Assembly: GCA_951406725.2 (NCBI GenBank)
Contig: OX597816.1
Span: 123,008,001 to 123,072,000 of the forward strand
Direction of reading: 5' to 3'
DNA from: Octopus vulgaris
Lineage: Eukaryota
Length of the DNA stretch: 64,000 bases
The translations under genes and the position numbers were made by a program. Each line of letters starts with the position of its first letter. Within the stretch, counting starts at the first letter, position 1. Below the pieces are notes generated by a model. That model searched no databases, was not told the origin of the DNA, and was given only the letters and a program-made list of their open reading frames with translations. This document shows positions 5,956 to 62,009 of this stretch, piece after piece.

Positions 5956-5996
<41 letters not shown>

Positions 5997-6024
5997 TAAG
6001 TAACAATTGATGGACAGGTGTCAA

Positions 6025-6108
6025 TTTATGACAGCCGTTTCTAGCCAAATTTTCACTTGATTAACGAGTGTAATATATCAATATAAAAAGCCGTATTTTT
6101 CAGATGTA
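6025..6108 (-). ncRNA. Degenerate type I hammerhead-like motif (left arm, long stem II)
   Basis: Minus strand: CUGAAAA - AU-rich hairpin - GAAAC-GGCU-GUC-AUAAA; G8 is mutated to A. Confidence 0.4.
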
Positions 6109-6284
6109 TACATGAATTTTACAATGATGGACATTTAAAATAATTAAAAATTCACAGCGCATACATATTTAGGGATTCTACAACCAGCCCTTGCAAGTCG
6201 TCTTGCCAGTCATATAATCCCTAAATATGTATGTGCTGTGGATTTTGAATTATCTCAAATGTCCTTCAGTATAAAATTCATGTA

Positions 6285-6368
6285 TTCATCTGAAGAAAAA
6301 GGTTTTTTACAATGATATATTGTATACATTAATCAATTAAAATATTCTCTAGAAATGGCTGTGATAAA
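6285..6368 (+). ncRNA. Degenerate type I hammerhead-like motif (right arm, long stem II)
   Basis: UUCAU-CUGAAGA - AU-rich hairpin - GAAAU-GGCU-GUG-AUAAA; cleavage triplet is mutated to GUG. Confidence 0.4.
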
Positions 6369-7002
6369 TTGACACCTGTCCATCAATTGTTACATATTTA
6401 TTTTTAATTCACCTATCTTGGAACATGCCCCTCATGTATTATGATATATATTATAAACTGTATACTTAATAAAATATACATGTCTGAATAGCTCAAGAGC
6501 AAATTATATATTCAGTTGGGTCCAATTTATCTGCATGCATTACCTAAATATTTTACCAGCACTTCTGTACTAAGGTTGGTAATTATCTATAATTGGTGTG
6601 TGTGCATTTTATCCTGAGCAAACAAGGTGCAAACCTTTAAGTACCTCATTCAACTGAATCTTGTTATATTATATTTTATTACACTAACAAATCAACCCGT
6701 CTACGGTGGAGGCATAAAATGAAGGAGGGAAGACATAACAGCAGTATGTATTGAGAAATGTAATGGGCTTGATAGATTACTGGATAATGTCTTAGAGAAA
6801 TCATATTATTGTTGGTGATACAATATTCTATTGCAGCTATATGACATGTGTTTGCAACTGACATGTGATGATGATTCATTCCCGAACTGAAATAAGCTCC
6901 CAACCTCTTTATCATGAATGGCTATGTGAACCACTCTTATTGAAAGCCAGAGCTTCCGTCAACCACTACATAAAAAAGTATTAAGAAAACAAATGTTATC
7001 TA

Positions 7003-7326
7003 TTGTGTCCAGGGAGAGTCATTCTCTTTTGGTGCCTTATAATTTATACACTCACTGGTAAAATTTCCACTTATTTCTTTTTTATTTTTCTAAACTTTTC
7101 GTTGTGTCTTGCAAAATTTTCAATAGTTTTGACTCAAAACTATTGAAAAGGTTGCAAGACGCAACGGAAATTTTAGTTTAGAAAAATAAAAAAAGAAATA
7201 AGTGGAAATTTTATTGGTGTGTTAAATTATAAGACACCGAAAGAGAATGACTCTCCCCAGACACAACAGAATATGCTTCAACACACGAACTCGCATAAAG
7301 AATCTTGCAAACCATATCCAAAAACG
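7003..7326. mobile_element. Asymmetric palindromic non-coding element, copy 1 (PLE-like)
   Basis: Palindrome centred at 7133 (caatagttttga-c-tcaaaactattg) with arms 7003-7132 and 7134-7267; about 60 nt unpaired tail 7268-7326; direct repeat AAATGTTATCTA at 6991-7002 and 7327-7338; second copy at 61538-61814. Confidence 0.85.
7137..7179 (+). ncRNA. Variant (U3-A8) minimal hammerhead-like motif
   Basis: AAACUA-UUGAAAA-G-GUUGC-AAGAC-GCAAC-GGAAA-UUU-UAGUUU. Confidence 0.45.
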
Positions 7327-9589
7327 AAATGTTATCTAGATATACTTTTATTTTAGTTGTTTACACTATTTTATGCTTGTTTATACTCTTATACATTCAA
7401 AGTCTTATACATTACTCATATATTTTTGCATTCAGATTTCACTGGAGTTGACTTTACCTTTACATGCATGCATGCACACATGCACGCACACACACAGGTA
7501 ACTCCTTCATTACGTCAATGCATTTATAATTATTTTTCTATTGATGGGAAAATTTATAACACTAGATGTGATCTCATCCTATCAGTAATGAGTAGGTTTG
7601 AATGTGAAACATCTGTTAAGTTGTCATTGTTATGTAAATCATGTCTAGGCCTGTTGTTGATAAAACAATAACCATTTTGCATATCATTTTCCACTTCATC
7701 AATAGTTGCCCATCCATGAGATGACTCCTTCATTCTTGTCATCTGCAAAATATATGATTGTCCATCAAGCTCCTTTCGAAGCATGACAAATCTGTGAGAT
7801 CATTTTAATTTTCCAGTCTATTTTTGGACAGTCCTAACAGCAAAACGCTATTCCCCAATATCTAAAAAGGCCTTTTATGAATTTTGGTTTCTGATGGAAT
7901 TATTGATAAAGCAAAATTGCACCTCAGTCTCCAGAGAGCTACTGCAATACTGCTTGAATATTTTTATTTCATGTAGTGAAATAAGAATATTCTAGTAGCT
8001 CTCTTGCAGTGTGTCTAAAGTAAATTAATTTGGTTGATGCTATCCTTGAGAATTCTATATTCAAGGAATGATATATACTCACCACTTTTACACATGTATA
8101 GCAAGTCAACATCATAACATCTTAATATTTCAAATACCAGTTTGCAGGCAATGAGAATAAAGTTTCATGTTCATGGATTCAATGCTTCTCCTATTACAAG
8201 ATATGAAGTGTCAAAGTTTTAAGCAAATTGTTTGACATTCTACTAAGCTGTAACTTTCTCTAAGAAAGTTTAGATGAGAGTAAATCAAATAACTAGAAAC
8301 ACTAAGATGCAATACTTAAACATTGAGCTTTGTATCAATGTTTAATTTCAACTGAAAGTTGGGATGTTTACTTCATACTTGGCTTTTGTCTGTTAATGAA
8401 AAATAATTTGAATGTAGTATTGGTAACTGACTTTCCTAACCTCTGTAGCCTAAGGAAAAGCAGAGTGTGACAAACCTTGTAATGGTCTGCATTGGCAAGA
8501 ATTATACAGTAAAATTCATGTTTTGATAAGTTTGCATACTGAAAGTAGTCATACAGACTGAAATTTCATGGCTGTACTTTCATCTGACACAGAACAACTA
8601 TTTACAGCTAACATAGATTAATTAATGGAGCATCAAAAGTGCTAGATAATCTTTGTGATTTACTGGAATACGTATTAGAAAAACATGGAAAAATGATTTA
8701 TGAAAAAAGATACTAAATACCAGATAGTAGGAAATTTTTATACTAAGTGGATGATACGTTTATCTCACACATACAGGTGTCTTGTCAATAGTGGTAATTA
8801 CGATAAAATTTTCTGACATAGCTACAACAGGACTATGATATGTTTTGCTTACAAAACCTATCATGTGAAAGTTAATGTGTATATACTTTGCTCATGGTTC
8901 AGAAAATGTTTCTTTAAACTGATTTTTATGATAGTTGATAACATTCTCTCTCTACAATTTAAAATATTTTTTGCATGGAATACCATTGGGGATTCTGTAG
9001 CATTTGTACGTGCAGACTTAGGATATAGGGAGTAAATTGAGTGATCTAAAGTTAGATCTCTCAAATGAGATGATCAAAGGCTATAAAAATATCTTGCACT
9101 TTTGCTCTTCTCAATAGCATAGAAAAGATACATATCTGAGGATGATTATCTACTGCCAAAGTAGATAGGAACTACTGGCTCTTATATGCAATTATTGATA
9201 TATTTGTTGTATATGACGTTCGATTCTTTGCTCTACATTTAGATTCCCATTACACACAGGAGAAGGTAGAAAAGCACTCTCCTGAAATGAACTTCATAAA
9301 CTGTTCATTTGGCTAATGAGATTTTGTAGATAGCCTCCTTTACCTAGTCCTGTGACATAGCTTCATAAGGCACTGATAACAGAGTAAATATAGTAGAATT
9401 AATCTGAAAAATTAATCAAAAAAGTTATTTACAGAAAAATTTAATCAAAGAAAAAGTAATTTAAAAATTGTTGAAAAGATGGGAAGACTGAATAAAACTT
9501 GTGGAATGAATAAGACAATACACATTAGGGTTGTATTGGCACCAGCTGCAGAAAGTCTGTTGAGTTGGAAACAAAGAAATTTATTTTAT

Positions 9590-17584: not shown

Positions 17585-18905
17585 TTGCGTTGAAGGCCTG
17601 GATTTGTTTCTAGAAATTAAAAAAATATCTGAAGGAGAACTGGTCTGGAATCAAGTTGAAGATTTTTGATCCAGGTAAAAGGTCCCCAACCTTATTGAGC
17701 TGCCCAGCGGAGCACAACTTCAAGTAGTGGTAGAAGGCAGAAAGCCAAGGTGTTACACTTGTGGGTCTAAGGCCCATTTGAAGGTTCTCTGTCCAAAACA
17801 ACAACAAAATGGAGCTAGAGAAACAACGGTTCTGCTACCACCACCACAAGAAGGTAAAATGCTGCAACAACAATCACTGCAGCAACAACCATTAAAGCAA
17901 CATCTTCAACAACAGAATCCCACCACAACAATGACAGTGGTGGAAACAAACAAGCAACGCCCGACCATCCCTACAGGTGAGCGACATAGATACACCTTGT
18001 ACGCCTGACACTGGCGATTCAGAAGCAACAAGAAGGAATTGAATCCCACCCCGCAAATGACTTATGTTGGGAAAAGCGGGAAAATAGTTCCAGAAAAGGC
18101 CGTCCTAAGCTGAAAGTGGAGAGACAGGACGAGGAAAATTCATCTAATTCATCAGCTACATCACTGGTACACTAACCTAAATCCCAACAAAAAGAGCAAT
18201 GCACCCTCATTCAGTCACAACCACAACTACAAAAAGCACCAAAACAGAAACAAATACACAAAGAGAACCAACAGTCATAAGCTGGCTTCGGAGGTACTCT
18301 GATCAATTTGAAAGCAGGCGGTTTCAGAAACGTTCTCAGAGGCTGGATTTCTGCAATGCACAGTGACATCGGTTCAGTGGTCAAAGTAAAAAGCCACCTA
18401 TCGGAGCCATTTGGCATCGCACGTTCGGTCCGTCAGGATTTCCCACTGTTACCTCTATATACATATTGGCACTCGAGCCATTGCTGCAGAAGACGGAACA
18501 GCTAATGAGAATCCCTTTCGAACTGGGACAAGGAAAGGCAGTGTCGGCATACACGGACGACGTCCCCGTCATGGTGTCCAACACCTCCGAAGTGGAGACG
18601 GTCGGTACCATCCTAAAGGAATATGAATCGGTTACAGGGGCTAAAAATCAACGTTGACAAATTGGTTGGCTTGCAGTTGGGCTCCTGGAGAGGCAGGACG
18701 TTGCCATCGGACGACGTTGTCGGGAGCTGGACCGACAGACAAGTTAAAGTGCTTGGGGTCTGGTTTGGTCCCGACATCCAGATTGATAAGAACTGGGATG
18801 AGATAGCAAAGAAGGTGGCCAGTCTTACCCAGAAATGGGATGAAAGAAAGCTGTCCCTGAAAGGTTGAGCAGAGGTAGCGAATGCTTACATCACTTTCGT
18901 GATTA
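17585..18905 (+). mobile_element. L1/Tx1-clade LINE relic (ORF1 zinc knuckle joined to RT)
   Basis: CYTCGSKAHLKVLC (CX2CX4HX4C); RT pieces SVRQDFPL, LALEPLL, SAYTDDV, VKVLGVWF, WDERKLSLKG with frameshifts and a stop. Confidence 0.85.
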
Positions 18906-24457: not shown

Positions 24458-25827
24458 CAGTAGTTTTATTTTTATAGCGTACTTTCACTTCACTACCAAG
24501 CGCAGCTCTGTGTGCCTTAGGTATGTGCAGTGATTTGTTGTGATGCTCTGATGGTTATTGTATGGAAAGTGTTCTGCGTAGGATGTGTGCAGTGCCTAGT
24601 AGTGCAATTTTTTGTATGTTATATGTGTTTGTAAGTCCTGGTGTTTTTGTTATGTATTTGTCTGAATATTTTTTTATCATGCCTAATGCACCTACTATGA
24701 TAGGAATTGTTTCTGTTTTTAGATTCCACATTCTGGTTACCTCTATTTCCAGGTCTTTGTATTTTGAAAGTTTCTCCAATTCTTTTAGAGACACGTTGTC
24801 ATCTGCCGGTTTTGATACATCAATTAGAAAGCATTTTTTTCTTCATGATCTCTGACAACTATATCTGGTCTGTTGGCCTTAATTTCTCTATCTGTGTGTA
24901 TTGGCATATTCCAGAGTATGGTTGCTTTCTCGTTTTCTGTGACCTTTTCTGGTGTGTGCCTATACCATCTTTTTTCTGTTGTTATTCCATAATGTTGGCA
25001 TAGCTTCCAATGTATGTAGGTTCCAACTCTGTCATGTCTGTGAATGTATTCCTTCTTAGTCAGGACTGGGCAGCTAGAGATAATATGATTTATTGTTTCT
25101 TGTCCATCTCCACATATTCTGCAGTTACTTGTTATATTTCTTTTCATTACATGTTTTTGGTAATTTCTGGTGGGGATGCTTTGGTCTTATGCTGCAATTA
25201 AAAACCCCTCTGTCTCTGCTTTGAGTCCTGAGCTTCTCAACCATTGCTGGGATTTTTCTTTGTCTATTTCTTTTGCGTTTAGTTTAGTCCAGTATTTACC
25301 ATGAAGGGGCTTTTCGTGCCATCGTTTTATCATGGTTCGTTGCTGTTCTATTTTTAGTTTGGATTTCATTTGTTTTATAGCTTTTGTTGTCTTCTTCTTC
25401 TTCTTCTTCTTCTTCTTCTTCTTCTTCTTCTTCATATTTATTAGGTGGTATGATTTCTTGTTTGTATTTGTCAGCTTCCTTAAATACTGAGAACAGTTTT
25501 TTGTTTTTTTGTTTTGCTCGTGTTTCGCCACTATTTGTATCAGTTTTCCTTCCTTCTGAAGTAGATATTTTTGCAGTCCTATGGTGGTTATTTTATAGTA
25601 GTTTTCCAGCTGTATAAGGCCTCTACCACCTTCTATACGTTGTATATATAGTCTTTCTATGTCAGATTTTGGGTGATGCATCCTAGATCCTGTCATTATT
25701 TTTCTTGTTTTCCTATCTATTTTGGTCAGTTCATTTAGTGTCCAGTTAAGGATATTGTAGCTGTAACTTATAACTGGGACAGCTAAAGTGTTAATACCTA
25801 TTATCTTGTTTTTAGCATTGAGCTCTG

Positions 25828-25829
<2 letters not shown>
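24458..25829 (-). mobile_element. Young 5'-truncated R4/Dong LINE in (TAA)n
   Basis: HPKSDIERLYIQRIEGGRGL, KPLHGKY, CRICGDGQETINHIISSC (CCHC), RHD, RPDIV, KYKDL, QKIALLGTAHILRRTL; (TAA)n on both sides; internal (GAA)n expansion, a stop and frameshifts. Confidence 0.95.
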
Positions 25830-25869
<40 letters not shown>

Positions 25870-25884
25870 CATCATCATCATCGA

Positions 25885-27290
25885 CATCATTATTATTCTG
25901 AAAGACTCTTAGATAGTTCTTAATTACTGGTTGTTCTTTACTTGAAAGCAGGCCATGACAAATCGCCAAAAGTTTCAAGTGGCGCCTTCTCCTGTGACTC
26001 AAAGAGATAATACTCTCCTTAGAATGCAAGCTGTACCCAACAATGCTGTCTTCTGGATCACTTCAAGCCTGATAGCAGCCAAATATTCTTAATATGTTTT
26101 TCAAAGCTCTTAGAAACTGCTCTTAATGCTCCGATTACCACCAGTATCACCTTTACTTTCCTCATGCCCCATATCTTTCCTATCCTGTCCTGCAGTGCAC
26201 CTTTCTACAAGCACACATCTAGCTGTTTTGCTATCCTTTCATGGAGTCCTTTCAGCTTCTTCATCTAATATCCTTGGACCCCATCTGGTCCTGAACTCTT
26301 CCAATTTGGGAATTTTCTTAACTGCATTTTTATCATTTCTGTAGTTATTTTTATGTCTTCTTGGACTTCTATATCTCTTGACCTATCTTGGTTTTCACGT
26401 AGCCACTCCACTTCATCATTATACTCTACAGGCTGGTCTAAGATACCTCTCCACAATGCCCTGCTTTCCTCTGCATCTGGTTTCATAGTTATGCATAATT
26501 GCCCATCTAGTTCCTGAAGCAGTTTCTTCTGATTTGCTTCAAACAATCTGTTCTGCCTGAATTATTTTCTTCTATTGTTATATCTTTCCAGTTTTGCTCT
26601 GATTGCCACTATTCTTTGTTTCAGTTCTTCCAATATCACACCATACTCTTTATCTCTTATTTTATATGTTCTTTCCAGCATTATTCTTATGCTTTCATTC
26701 TGCAATTCCCCTCTACTCAATCTATCAAATTGTCCTAAATGTCTTTTTAACTTTGTTTCTCCCAAATTTGTCTACACTAGTATTGTTCTTTACATTCTGT
26801 TTGTTCTCTTCTTTTGTATTCAACTCTATCTGCAGCAACCATAGCTTCAGCCCAAATAATCTTGTTAGTTTCAGTTATATTTCTCGTCTGGAACAGCCTA
26901 AGGACCGAATCTATATTTACAGTTTCAACTTTGAGTTTGTGTAGATCAATGTACCTCAGATTGGTTGATGCTTGATCCTGTTCTTCTCTAATATATTGGC
27001 ACAGCATCCTCACTATGTCTTGTTGGTCATCATCATATTCTTGTGATATAGCCCTTCCCATTATTCTGCTTCATTTGCTGAGAATGAATTTACATTTTCA
27101 CTTGGCTCTAAATCTTCACTGTCCTAGCTGGGCACATTATTTATTGGTGAAGTATTATTTCTATTTTCTACTTTACATTTTATCTCTTCAATTTCCGTGT
27201 CTGTTAACGACTCTATTGCTTTTATCGCAAAATTCTTATAAAATGTCATTGCTCTTTCTTAGAGGAGGAGTATTATGCATTGCTATATAA
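25885..27290 (-). mobile_element. Third, internally deleted R4/Dong LINE
   Basis: N-terminal pieces (LEELKQRIVAIRAKLERY, FEANQKKL, PNWKSSGPDGVQGY) joined to the C-terminus (VVIGAL, IQKTALLGTACILRRVL). Confidence 0.85.
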
Positions 27291-36143: not shown

Positions 36144-36194
36144 TTAAGGTTTTAGGGTTCGGGTTTTAGAGTTAGGGTTTTAGGGTTAGGGTTT
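36144..36194 (+). repeat. Degenerate interstitial (TTAGGG)n array
   Basis: ttaaggttttagggttcgggttttagagttagggttttagggttagggttt. Confidence 0.85.
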
Positions 36195-36213
36195 CCCCAA
36201 GACACCTGATGAA

Positions 36214-36259
36214 GACACCTGATGAAGGCTGGAGGGTATATCAGCCGAAACGTTGTGTT
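36214..36259 (+). ncRNA. Minimal type I hammerhead ribozyme motif (Penelope-like)
   Basis: GACAC-CUGAUGA-A-GGCUG-loop-CAGCC-GAAA-CG-UU-GUGUU; palindromic AACGUU stem III. Confidence 0.75.
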
Positions 36260-37508: not shown

Positions 37509-38894
37509 TCATCATCATCATCATCCTTTAGCGTCCGTTTTCCATGCTAGCATGGGTTGGACGGTTCAACTGGGGTCTTTGAAGCCGGAAGGCTGCATCA
37601 GGCCCAGTCAGATCTGGCAGTGTTTCTATGGCTGGATGCCCTTCCTAATGCCAACCACTCCGTGAGTGTAGTGGGTGCTTTTTACGTGCCACCCGCACAG
37701 GTGCCAGACGGAGCTGGCAAACGGCCACGAACGGATGGTGCTTTTACGTGCCACCAGCACGGGGGCCAGGCGAGGCTGGCAATGGACACAAATGGATGGT
37801 GCTTTTACGTGCCACTGGCACGGGGCCAGGCGAGGCTGGCAACAGCCACGAACAGATGGTGTTTACGTGCCACCGGCACGGGGGCCAGGCGAGGCTGGCA
37901 GCGGACACGAACGGATGATGCTTTTACGTCCCACTGGCACGGAAGCCAGACAAGGCGGCGCCGGCAACGACCACGATCGGATGGTTCACTTAACCACAGC
38001 TGCAATTTCCACAGATGTTGATCGACCTCAATTTTGGTTCTGCTTTCTGATATCTGATTTGATTTGGTTTGATTTTGATTTTGACTGTTCTCACTGGTCT
38101 TGCCGGGTCTTCTCATGCACAGCATACTTCCATAGGTCTCGGTCTCTAGTAATTTCCTTGGTGAGACCTAAAGTTCCAAGGTCGTGCTTCACCACCTTGT
38201 CCCAGGTTTTCCTGGGTCTACCTCTTCCACAGGTCCCCTCAACTGCCAGGGTTTGGCACTTTTTCACACACCTATCTTCATCCATTCTCGCCACATGACC
38301 ATACCAGTGCAATCGTCTCTCTTGCACACAACAACTGATGCTTCTTAGGTCCAACTTTTCTCTCAAGGTACTTACACTCTGTCGATTATGAATACTGACA
38401 TTACACATCCATCGGAGCATACTAGCTTCATTTCTTGCGAGCTTACGCAAATCCTCAGCAGTCACAGCCCAAGTTTCACTACCATGTAACATGGCTGTAC
38501 GTACACATGCACCATACAGTCTGCCTTTTACTTTGAGTGAGAGGCCTTTTGTCACCAGCAGGGGTAAGAGCTCTCTAAACTTTGCCTAGGCTATTCTTAC
38601 TCTAGCAGTTACACTTTCAGCACACCAACCCCCGCTACTGACTTAGTCACCTAGGTAGTGGAAGCTATCAACTACTTCTAGTTTTTCTCCCTGGAACGTG
38701 ATAGAAGTTGGTCTCTGCATATTTTCAGAGTTTATTGCTCCTGAGCATCTGCCACAGATAAAAACTATTTTCCTAGTTAGTCTTCCTTTGACATTACTAC
38801 ATCTCTTATGTGTCCATAGCTTACATTTGGTGCATCTTATAGAGTTTCTACCCATGCCTTTTCTACAGATCGAGCAAGGCCATCTACCTGAAGG
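37509..38894 (-). mobile_element. 5'-truncated RTE-clade LINE
   Basis: ORF end VVDSFHYLGD, KVKGRLYGACVRTAMLHGSETW, RRLHWYGHVARM, RGRPRKTW; 3' UTR and (GAT)n tail; in-frame stops. Confidence 0.95.
37675..37985. repeat. Five about 60-bp GC-rich tandem units in the RTE 3' UTR
   Basis: Units start near 37675, 37738, 37799, 37859 and 37918; consensus GTGCTTTTACGTGCCACCGGCACGGGGGCCAGGCGAGGCTGGCAACGGCCACGAACGGATG. Confidence 0.92.
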
Positions 38895-39224
38895 TATATT
38901 AAAAGAAATTTCCACTTTACCACATTAAAGACTACTTTGATTGTAAATGTTTAATGAGAAGAGTGGATGCTTCTCAAAGAACAATTAGTGAATAACAAGT
39001 TACTAATTCAAATTTCTTGAGTGGATAACTTTAACAAAAGTCATAGAAAGTTCATGTGTAACTATTATAGACAAAGTCCTTCATACACAGAAATGCACAT
39101 ATTTATGGTTGGCTGAATATTGAAAAATTGTTGGTAAAAAACAGTGAAATAAATAGCATTGATATATAACAAATATATTTCCATTTCAAGATGAGCACTA
39201 CTGAAATTATGAACTTCTTCTTCC

Positions 39225-55318: not shown

Positions 55319-55361
55319 CCACTACAATTGTTTCTTGTCCTGATCGACAATCTTCAGGTGG
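55319..55361 (-). ncRNA. Canonical minimal type I hammerhead ribozyme motif
   Basis: CCAC-CUGAAGA-UUGUC-GAUCAG-GACAA-GAAA-CAAUUG-UA-GUGG; all core bases present, stems I and II perfect, palindromic stem III; element about 55230-55380 flanked by (TA)n. Confidence 0.85.
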
Positions 55362-59000: not shown

Positions 59001-60458
59001 ATAAATCTAGACAAGGGTTTCTTAACTATAACAATTGCAAAGAGAGAAGAATTCTAAAACATTATTTGTCCACTGTATATAAAACAGAATGTCTCATATA
59101 AACTCTAAGTAATATCATAAATGTGGGTGGTGATACTGTAATAAATAAGTTGTCCAGACACTTGATTGGTTTGTCAATATTTCCTTGAACCATACAGGAA
59201 TTGCACCAATAAACTTGTTGACATTAGAATGAAATGCAGTCCAAAATTTCAGTAAACTCAGAATGACTTTAATAGTTTTGAAGAAGAAGGAATATTATCA
59301 AAGCAGTGTTTAATTACTGAAGTGGATCACAAGAGAATACATCACTGTCACAGGAAATACCTTCCAATGCTTTAAAAATCCTTGTTGTTTTTATGATATA
59401 ATCTATCTTACAATCATCTTGGTTACAGCTTTGGGATTGTGTTTTATTAACTTTCTTCAGTATTCATACTTCAAGCTAAATGGCATTTGATCATTTCAAT
59501 TGCTTTTTTTATATTTTCTTTTCTTTAATTCTTTATTCATTTCCTCTGCTGTGTCAGAACTTTATATATTACCTGTGTTGCTTTCTTTCTAGTTCCAATT
59601 TCATTATAACCCATACACTGCTATTTAATAGTTTTGTTTTTGCTATATTTTATTTTGGTATTATTTTTATCTCTTTATAATTCTCAAATTACAACAACAA
59701 CTTTGTGAGTTTATTCCAACCATTTCCCGTTATTTAACCCACTTTCTCATTTTGGATCTAGTGACTACAAATCAGATCAAATTTTGAAATGTAAACACTT
59801 ATTTGTATGAGAATAAAATCTGATCGTTCTGTCTGTTTTATTACTGTTGCTGATGGTTCTGTTGTTGATTTTTCTTCCTCCCAATTGAATGTAATTATAT
59901 TTGATGTTGACTACTTTTGTCTGTCAGTTCAGATTTATTTGTAGTGGATTTATAACAGAATTATACTCAATAATATCAGGGAATTATCAAATTACTTTAA
60001 GAATTGAAATGAAACAAACATGGGTTCTTATTATATTTTATTGACATCTTTATAAATAGTAAGAGAAAGGGGGTGGAACAGAAAGTAGTAATCAAGGTTT
60101 TCTGACTATTTAGCGATCCACTGGCTTGAGATATTACAACATGAGTTCTCCAGATATCAGAATATTCATCGTGAGCAAACAAATGAGCTGTAGAGAATAT
60201 AACAACTGGTGTTTGCATTACAGCTTGGAAAGAAAAGTAAAACCAAAGTTTCACTGTGAGCAGTGGATGCAGCATTGGTTCGGAATCTCTTTCTGTATAT
60301 CTTAGTTAATGTGGATATACTGTAAAAAACAACAGAACTGAGAAGTATCTTGTATAGATATAGTGTTAAAAAGCACAGAAGTATCAGGTCATCCCATAAG
60401 TTCTGTCTGGATTTTGAATAAAGAAAACCAGTGATCAAGTGTTATATTTAATTGAAAT

Positions 60459-61474
60459 TTAATCATCAATGTACTTTCCCTGATTATCTTTGACTTCCTT
60501 CCATCTATTTACAAGCTTTTTAATCCCATCAATGTAAAACTCTTTTGGTTTCAAAGCGAAGAACTCTGAAATGTTAGTTTCGAATTCCTCCTGGGTTGCA
60601 AAAGTTATGTCCCCCAAATGATTCTGTAAGCTACAAAACAAATGGTAGTCTGAAGGAGCAGGGTCGAGAGAATAAGGTGCATGAGGAATTTTTTCCCAAC
60701 CAAGCTCTTCAATCTTCTGTGATGTGATCTTTGCAGTGTGGGGTCGCGCATTGTCCTGATGAAACATTACTCCTTTTCGATTCACTAAAACAGATCTTTT
60801 TTTCTTCAGAGCTTGGTTCAATCGCTCTAATTGCTGACAGTAGACTTGAGCATTAATTGTTGCATTAGGTGGTAACAATTCAAAGTGAATTACTTCTTTG
60901 CAATCCCATTAGATAGAGAGAAGAACCTTTTTCCCATGAAGTTCCATTCTCAGTTGTGTTTGAGCTTTTTCCCTTTTACCAAGCCACTGTTTACAATGTT
61001 TAACATGTTGATAGAAGATCCATTTTTCATCATCAGTCACAAGTCTATCCAAAAAGGGTGAAATGAGTTTGTAAGAATGGAGAGAAGAGCAAATGTCAAC
61101 TTGGGATTCGCAGTTGCTTTCGGACAATTCATGTGGCATCCATTTTCCAAGTTTAGGAACCTTTCCATGTTGTTGAAGATGAAGATGAACAGTTGTATGG
61201 TTTGAACTAAATTTTATTGCCAATTCTTCAACTGATAATGTAGGATTTTCTTCAAGTAATGCCTCAAGGAGTTTATCATCAAACTCAACTGGACGTCCTG
61301 TTTGATCTTCATCTTCAAGGCTGAAATCTCCACTTCTGAATTTTGCAAACCATCTTCTGCAAGTTCTTTCATTCAAGCATTCTTTCCTATAAACTGAGTC
61401 ACTTCGGCTGCAGAGTTTCCATTTTTGTACTCATAAAGCATTGTGTGCCTCAAATGTTCTTTGGATACCTCCAT
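60459..61474 (-). pseudogene. Mariner transposase pseudogene
   Basis: MEVSKEHLRHTMLYEY, RRWFAKFRSGDFSLED, KWMPHEL, VTDDEKW, HQDNARPH-(34 aa)-PSDYHLF; one N-terminal frameshift and one in-frame stop at 60909-60911. Confidence 0.95.
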
Positions 61475-61537
61475 GTTAGAAAGGGTTTTAATCAAAGAAA
61501 TTTTACTCCTATTATTCTGTAAAATAATATTTAATTA

Positions 61538-61814
61538 TATTTCGTTTTTGGATTTGGTTTGCAAGATTCTTTATATGAGTTCGTGTGTTGCAGAATATTC
61601 TGTTGTGTCTGGGGAGAGTCATTTTCTTTTTGTGCCTTATAACACACTCACCAGTAAAATTTCCACTTTTTTCTTATTCAAAACTATTGAGAAGGTTGCA
61701 AGATGCAACGAAAATTTTAGGAAAATAAAAATAAGAAAAAAATTGGAATTTTTACCGGTGAGTGTGTTATATTATAAGGCACAAAAAGAAAATGACTCTC
61801 CCCAGACACAACAA
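61538..61814. mobile_element. Asymmetric palindromic non-coding element, copy 2 (inserted in the mariner 5' UTR)
   Basis: Same family as 7003-7326 in mirror layout; direct repeat AATATTTAATTA at 61526-61537 and 61815-61826. Confidence 0.88.
61684..61720 (+). ncRNA. Variant (U3-A8) minimal hammerhead-like motif
   Basis: CUA-UUGAGAA-G-GUUGC-AAGAU-GCAAC-GAAA-AU-UU-UAG. Confidence 0.5.
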
Positions 61815-62009
61815 AATATTTAATTAGTTTAAATGTACCCAAATGCATAAAAATAATTTTTAATTCCATTAGACATTCTAAAATGCTATTAAATTTCATT
61901 CAATTTTAAGAAAGTAAAATTGGCCAGAACTTTTGGGGTGACCTGATATATCAGTGGACACTTGATACTGATAACTCTGTAAAAAGCATAAATCTAGATT
62001 TAACAATTC

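Follow-up and report, generated by a model that had tools for sequence, protein, structure and literature searches.

Penelope-like elements (PLEs) leave insertions of characteristic architecture: an inverted, 5'-truncated copy stands at the 5' end, a tail of 30-40 bp is present at one end, and target-site duplications (TSDs) measure 8-10 bp (PMC8557442, PMC3846280). In the rotifer Adineta vaga, the pseudo-long terminal repeat (pLTR) together with the tail contains the first 22 codons of the open reading frame, ORF (PMC3846280). The protein of a green anole PLE nicks both strands of AT-rich DNA, extends them and uses RNA in its uncut form; its reverse transcriptase (RT) starts at two internal sites that bound the tail, the first of them 111-118 nt past the start of stem II of the hammerhead ribozyme, and the ribozyme itself requires protein (PMC11167929). 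Cercyon PLEs of Schistosoma mansoni bear minimal hammerheads with a U3-A8 pair, about 1,300 mostly single motifs, which a C3-G8 descriptor misses (Cervera & de la Pena 2014, PMC4209133). According to the same source, minimal hammerheads occur in pairs 100-700 bp apart on opposite strands, their monomers stay uncleaved and their dimers cleave at low level. Here we describe a short palindromic element with a motif of the U3-A8 type from Octopus vulgaris. It is located at 6991-7338 of a 64,000-nt stretch (assembly GCA_951406725.2, contig OX597816.1, positions 123,008,001 to 123,072,000, forward strand), called the window throughout, which also contains a second copy. We propose that the element is likely a dead-on-arrival by-product of a PLE, whose RT/GIY-YIG protein copied only the 5' leader (the pLTR) of its RNA.

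Architecture of the palindrome and its family

The element at 6991-7338 (copy 1) is a head-to-head palindrome. Its left arm (6999-7132, minus strand) and right arm (7134-7270) agree in 120 of 131 aligned bases, and the centre consists of a single nucleotide, C7133. Both arms are full-length and the tail is attached only to the right one, at 7275-7330. The 12-mer that flanks the element is found solely at 6991 and 7327 when both strands of the window are searched. Its inner 4 bases overlap the right element end (7327-7330); at the left end (6999-7002), 3 of the 4 bases match. An earlier note, made from the letters of the window alone, had described the palindrome, the one-sided tail, the 12-bp repeat and the microhomology at the ends. 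All of these were confirmed, and the tail, put there at roughly 60 nt, measures 56 nt. The TSD-bounded insert of copy 1, 348 bp with its duplications, has no RT/GIY-YIG ORF and does not therefore represent an autonomous PLE. The window is AT-rich (GC 0.26-0.40), with many microsatellites, decayed retroelements and one mariner, and within its 64 kb no paralogous flank of the insertion was found.

Copy 2 resides in the 5' untranslated region of this mariner, a decayed but full-length element whose transposase frame is interrupted by stops and whose 24-bp terminal inverted repeats (TIRs) lie at 60382-60405 and 61925-61948. Without copy 2 and one copy of the duplication the mariner amounts to 1,278 bp, and mariners usually measure about 1.3 kb. 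Copy 2 would thus be an insertion and its 12 bp a target duplication. The inverted arm of copy 2 starts only 59 nt into the unit, at the position that corresponds to 7193. Both copies in the window are flanked by an AT-rich TSD of 12 bp. Coordinates of all features are given in Table 1.

Table 1. Features of the two palindrome copies and of the mariner that hosts copy 2 (window positions)
Feature	Position	Strand	Remarks
Left 12-bp TSD, copy 1	6991..7002		inner 4 nt overlap the end of the inverted arm
Inverted pLTR arm, copy 1	6999..7132	-	tail-less; degenerate hammerhead motif (changes in stem II and stem III)
pLTR-like unit	7134..7274	+	loose ends mark its 5' end (about 7134) and its first 3' end (7274) as boundaries throughout the family
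Minimal type-I hammerhead motif, U3-A8 core	7140..7176	+	G instead of A13 at 7167 in copy 1; cleavage predicted behind U7173
28-codon open frame from ATG through tail	7247..7330	+	possible start of parent ORF, a lead only
Optional 56-nt tail	7275..7330	+	7330 is the second family-wide 3' end by loose-end pile-ups
Right 12-bp TSD, copy 1	7327..7338		first 4 nt shared with the tail end
Decayed mariner hosting copy 2	60382..61948	-	24-bp TIRs; Pfam Transposase_1 and HTH_48
Copy 2	61526..61826		own 12-bp duplication at 61526-61537 and 61815-61826
Inverted arm, copy 2	61539..61675	-	5'-truncated, equivalent to 7193-7330; bears the tail, lacks the hammerhead
Full arm, copy 2	61678..61819	+	equivalent to 7134-7274; tail-less; intact U3-A8 hammerhead motif at 61684-61720

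Parts of the stretch are present in public sequencing runs under six organism labels, two of which contain only a small share of it; one of these two is included in the survey below. For a survey of the family, 7070-7450 was aligned at 80% likeness to contigs of four such runs (14,425, 13,920, 7,924 and 114 contigs); three of the runs are DNA and the fourth, X10, is guessed to be RNA. The survey covers 15 of 94 joints, 40 of 62 variant rows and a part of the loose contig ends (939 rows lie beyond it), and family results below refer to these listed items. Loose ends accumulate at two places: behind 7274, with 101, 111 and 76 in the DNA runs, and behind 7330, with 191, 252 and 153 in the DNA runs and 12 in the putative RNA run. 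Sequences beyond both points are AT-rich with a consensus agreement of just 0.44-0.50, which identifies them as unrelated insertion flanks. Before 7134 there are 71 and 84 loose ends, listed for two of the four runs, with only few terminal letters in common. Six of the 15 joints are strand switches; they lead from 7134-7139 to 7217, 7222, 7240, 7248, 7274 and 7281. The repeat unit starts at a shared point, stops at either of two positions separated by 56 nt and is joined to an inverted partner whose length varies. Over the motif, depth adds up to 0.8-2.4 million in the DNA runs, against 45.6 at a single-locus flank in run X12. This suggests a copy number on the order of 10^4 for the family, a depth ratio not being a true copy number. 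The exact element motif has no match in viral contigs and none in metagenome contigs. The right TSD of copy 1 adjoins a different high-copy repeat (7339-7407; summed depth about 10^4-10^5 in the three DNA runs), and the insertion of copy 1 may have hit this repeat or a site next to it.

In the tail-bearing arms of both copies, a frame starting from the ATG at 7247 (copy-1 numbering) stays open for 28 codons. No indel row falls within 7217-7368 in the family listing, and the changes present there are mixed, silent and replacement. This frame is possibly the beginning of the parent ORF and is taken as a lead only; we estimate that an open run of 28 codons is not unusual in such DNA. The earlier note had expected a PLE ORF linked to the element, an expectation to which the peptide searches lent no support. 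A single-query search against longer proteins yielded no match, and a hidden Markov model (HMM) of the peptide, run against 1.84 billion representatives, retrieved just three short unnamed Logan ORFs (40-77 amino acids). The same three were the only matches at near lengths, and the peptide aligned to none of 4,966 candidates among longer proteins. No match for the peptide was found in Pfam, and the best ESM Atlas scores for two frames, 0.82 and 0.79, are at chance level. From the supplement of Craig et al. (PMC8557442), four motifs gave no match, and in 4 of its 59 parts no matching N-terminus was seen by eye.

A minimal hammerhead motif with a U3-A8 core

The motif in the right arm of copy 1 consists of stem I (7140-7142/7174-7176), a 7-nt core (7143-7149), a bulged G (7150) and stem II (7151-7155/7161-7165). 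On the 3' side of stem II it continues with GGAAA, in place of which copy 2 has GAAAA, and then with a palindromic stem III of 4 nt and with U17 at 7173. As the earlier note had read, the cores of both copies differ only at N7, and its GGAAA/GAAAA difference is also real. We searched the window with a hammerhead descriptor that demands stem I of at least 3 and stem II of at least 4 pairs, a palindromic stem III, an NUH triplet and either C3-G8 or U3-A8. Three matches were obtained: copy 2, with U3-A8, and, at 36219 and 55357, two C3-G8 motifs unrelated to it. Over 500 dinucleotide shuffles of the window, searched on both strands, matches averaged 0.028 with a maximum of 1, while a separate run of 60 shuffles gave none. 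Scaled accordingly, the chance rate is about 1 x 10^-4 per given 300-nt element.

Copy 1 fails the descriptor owing to its A13G change and passes only with A13 left free; copy 2 passes. About 98% of the depth at 7167 reads A in all four runs, so G at this place is a private change of copy 1. Accordingly, the complete set of core requirements (the 3-8 pair, G5, A6, A9, G12, A13, A14, A15.1-U16.1 and H17) is found in copy 2 and not in copy 1. No U3-to-C change of at least 4% is present in any of the four runs, all T-to-C places being accounted for elsewhere. A-to-G places of at least 4% are likewise all accounted for elsewhere in three of the four runs; in X12, one is unassigned. Because these places lie elsewhere, U3 and A8 represent the family state and G at N7 is rare. 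The motif is perhaps also less variable than the linker: with CpG places excluded, none of 37 places vary in 7140-7176 as opposed to 12 of 69 in 7177-7245 (p=0.007; hand count, rows 7167, 7230, 7234 and 7239 dropped). When the three CpG places are kept, the contrast between core and linker has p=0.25.

The minimum-energy fold of the isolated motif is the stem I plus stem II skeleton in both copies (-10.4 and -7.7 kcal/mol). Folding of the entire copy-1 transcript predicts that the long hairpin displaces stem II (pair probability about 2 x 10^-16); for the entire copy-2 transcript, stem II is predicted to be kept (0.997). The motif of the left arm (6999-7132) is degenerate too, and the family letters differ there at 7105, 7115 and 7116. 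Since the two motifs of the palindrome lie on opposite strands, they cannot form a dimer in cis, and any role of the ribozyme is left to the parent RNA. The ribozyme would act weakly, as a dimer or aided by protein, and only in the RNA of the parent element, not in copy 1. The earlier claim of a minimal U3-A8 hammerhead thus holds, as a motif, for the family and for copy 2, which is intact, but not for copy 1, which is mutated at A13 and predicted to bury the motif in its hairpin. The accompanying view that N7 is a free position found no evidence, as A-to-G change stays below 4% in three of four runs and marks a rare variant. The note was right that a standard C3-G8 search would miss a U3-A8 ribozyme, although this had already been published (PMC4209133).

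A 6-bp stem I was rejected as a feature of the family: it goes back to a rare 4-base insertion in copy 1 (depth about 8 x 10^3 at 7179 vs 1.2 x 10^6 at 7167). A degenerate pattern of core and stem II occurs at 15 metagenome and 14 viral loci. All 29 fail the full descriptor and align nowhere to the element; they are therefore chance matches and act as a negative control. Rfam at E<=1 returned 83 matches over the window, without any hammerhead family.

The 3' strand of stem I is also part of a splice-acceptor-like run (7171-7177), and a donor-like GTGAGT is located downstream of it, at about 7215-7222. Both are given in family letters and are intact in copy 2 near 61717-61762; PLE leaders can hold introns.

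The two C3-G8 motifs bring the number of hammerhead-bearing families in the window to three. The first (36214-36259, plus strand) is a canonical minimal hammerhead of a second, unrelated family, with a 5-bp stem I, bulged A, 6-bp stem II and 4-nt palindromic stem III. It is preceded by a partial duplication of its own 5' half and by telomere-like repeats of TTAGGG type (about 36150-36195). The second (55319-55361, minus strand) has an 8-nt palindromic stem III and lies in a stretch of about 170 bp between (TA)n runs, which looks like a solo pLTR of a third family. Other repeats in the window include a MITE-like symmetric palindrome (5994-6399), 600 bp from the element, with 187-nt arms, 84% complementary, and a 32-nt spacer, where MITE stands for miniature inverted repeat transposable element. 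Fragments of decayed non-LTR retroelements are present at 24555-27070 (minus), 17679-18657 (plus) and 38091-38924 (minus), with matches to zf-RVT, weakly to RVT_1, and to PHD-finger.

Origin of the palindrome

We consider the origin of the palindrome from a PLE very probable. The hallmarks of inverted PLE pLTRs are found here together: a variably truncated head-to-head copy, two discrete 3' ends, an AT-rich target with a TSD in the range of about 8-12 bp, and a hammerhead motif within the pLTR. The earlier note's assignment to PLE-type retro-insertion rather than to MITEs is borne out by the two 3' ends, the variable inversion junctions, the AT-rich targets and the occurrence of the tail on either arm.

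The palindrome might arise by the following route, which we regard, taken as a whole from double-strand priming to head-to-head joining, as reasonably probable. By analogy with the green anole PLE in vitro, the protein would make one nick in each strand of an AT-rich target, with some 12 bp between the two. Each nick would prime cDNA synthesis at 7274 or 7330, aided by 4-5 nt of microhomology between target and RNA. Both cDNAs would then be copied back across the uncut hammerhead toward the RNA 5' end at about 7134, one of them often stopping early. Head-to-head joining of the cDNA ends would finally yield the palindrome, with the tail at the end of any arm begun at 7330. Priming on both strands predicts outward-facing 3' ends, a tail on either arm, a truncated partner, a duplication from the staggered cut and microhomology at the outer ends. 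Copy 1 shows microhomology of 4-5 nt at each of its outer ends, copy 2 at one. The tail belongs to a full arm in copy 1, whereas copy 2 bears it on its truncated arm.

The earlier note had taken the element for a self-propagating parasite. According to such a reading, a PLE protein mobilises in trans a short, ORF-less, retrozyme-like master RNA that has a promoter of its own and a U3-A8 hammerhead, and the palindromes descend from this RNA. This would be in line with the great abundance of the family, its sharp common 5' end, the missing conserved continuation among the loose ends, and the failure of the peptide searches to turn up any long protein; trans-mobilisation by pLTRs and non-autonomous derivatives of PLEs have also been published. 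However, junctions and arm lengths differ between copies; the unit that replicates is therefore not the palindrome itself, and heterogeneous junctions of this kind fit one-off by-products better. With the motifs on opposite strands a single transcript is left without a dimer, and a transcript of copy-1 type is predicted to have no stem II. The frame from ATG 7247 is open through the tail in both copies, similarly to the rotifer PLE pLTR and tail, and internal RT initiation on a full PLE RNA accounts for short products without any separate parasite. A self-propagating parasite therefore appears unlikely to us. We are equally doubtful of its fullest form, an ORF-less Penelope parasite resembling a MITE, with a short U3-A8 RNA and about 10^4 copies in several related species, inserted as twins by two-strand priming. 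If it were true, its thousands of junctions would document, naturally and on a genome scale, the formation of inverted repeats and tails in PLEs, and some "MITEs" in animal repeat libraries would be class I elements.

The inversion of a PLE-derived unit could also result from fold-back self-priming, acting on either an antisense template or the first cDNA, instead of priming on both target strands. Palindromes at inverted junctions led to this proposal for rotifer PLEs (PMC3846280), and the junction of copy 1 is indeed a hairpin, nearly perfect and with 1 nt at its centre. In contrast, the strand-switch joints and copy 2 have an inverted arm that starts deep in the unit and meets the full 5' end with no perfect hairpin between them. 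A truncated arm can bear the tail, and copy 1 has microhomology at both outer ends, so that we find self-priming distinctly improbable. MITEs and foldback elements are short and non-coding, with long inverted arms, a TSD and high copy number. Long inverted arms, lack of coding capacity, high copy number and 12-bp TSDs of both copies would thus suit a Mutator/FB-like element with long TIRs and long TSD, its hammerhead-like motif being captured or due to chance. Against a DNA transposon of this kind stand the asymmetric ends in two alternative forms and the variable centre, which largely refute it. Moreover, the chance rate of the motif is 0.028 per 64 kb, and the symmetric palindrome at 5994-6399 in the same window has neither tail nor motif. 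We hold this origin to be very improbable indeed.

Several observations weigh against the PLE by-product with a U3-A8 ribozyme, the reading we prefer. The motif varies little beyond CpG decay: apart from 7167, the listed changes within 7140-7176 are CpG-type transitions at 7160, 7161 and 7165 only, and none of the listed rows contains a compensatory stem change. Stem I of the family has only 3 bp and stem III is made of four A-U pairs, and the bulged base is G, where the published >80% consensus has A, C or U (PMC4209133). The tail of 56 nt exceeds the published 30-40, and the TSD length is identical in both copies (12 bp, n=2, the inner bases overlapping the element end). Direct tandems are present neither among the joints nor in the two window copies, and the loose ends reveal no common continuation beyond 7330 or before 7134. 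A linked RT/GIY-YIG ORF was not found by the peptide searches, and the four steps outlined above derive from a lizard PLE, a member of another family.

Relation to described elements

The separate features of the element, i.e. U3-A8 minimal hammerheads in PLEs, inverted pLTRs and one-sided tails, are already published. In the literature that our searches found on U3-A8 and C3-G8 hammerheads, the U3-A8 PLE variant is in print only for Schistosoma (PMC4209133). Searches for non-autonomous or palindromic PLEs and for MITEs with a hammerhead gave no such family by title or beginning of abstract. Among the matches listed for octopus and hammerhead, only a squid genome paper and the Craig preprint possibly concern retroelements, and the exact motif sequences have no match in the literature. 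An octopus repeat annotation reports 31 recently active Penelope-like families and, in the portion of its text available, mentions neither hammerhead nor ribozyme (PMC13282606). The family may already be catalogued in Repbase or Dfam.

The palindrome family would carry the U3-A8 PLE variant from Schistosoma into another animal lineage. Structure-based tools would probably classify the repeat as a MITE, but its most likely nature is that of a retro-product, and this bears on repeat annotation. With its pair of sharp 3' ends, its varying junctions and its thousands of copies, the family is good material for deciding between two-strand priming and self-priming in PLEs.

Compared with MITEs and foldback elements, the element is distinguished by asymmetric alternative ends, variable centre and a ribozyme motif. 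With animal non-LTR retrozymes (PMC7229834; preprint 10.64898/2026.07.22.740005) it shares non-coding nature, a type-I hammerhead and kinship to PLE pLTRs. Retrozymes are head-to-tail tandems with mostly canonical hammerheads and circular RNA, whereas here a head-to-head pair carries a minimal motif and no tandem is found among the joints listed.

The Schistosoma Cercyon motif is similar in its U3-A8 pair, bulge after position 9, G10.1-C11.1, loopless palindromic 15.2-16.2 and short helix I. In the supplement of PMC4209133, one Schistosoma row linked to a PLE shares the entire 7-nt core and also has a helix I of 3 bp and U17; the letters of stem III recur in an oyster row that is likewise linked to a PLE. 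The octopus family differs from Cercyon in its stems and host, in having no linked ORF found, in its apparently far higher copy number (about 10^4, inferred) and in the A13G change of copy 1.

The insertions themselves resemble those of endonuclease-positive (EN+) PLEs with pLTR and tail, namely Pen2a/Pen2 of Adineta vaga (PMC3846280), the elements of Craig et al. 2021 (PMC8557442) and Poseidon PAc of Anolis (PMC11167929). They differ by the absence of an ORF body between the repeats and by the 56-nt tail. The first RT site of the anole PLE, 111-118 nt from stem II, is of the same order as the distances of 124 and 180 nt from stem II to the two 3' ends here. Common to both are the inverted truncated copy, the one-sided tail, a TSD near 10 bp and AT-rich targets, as well as two 3' ends that bound the tail and a pLTR and tail that possibly include the start of the ORF.

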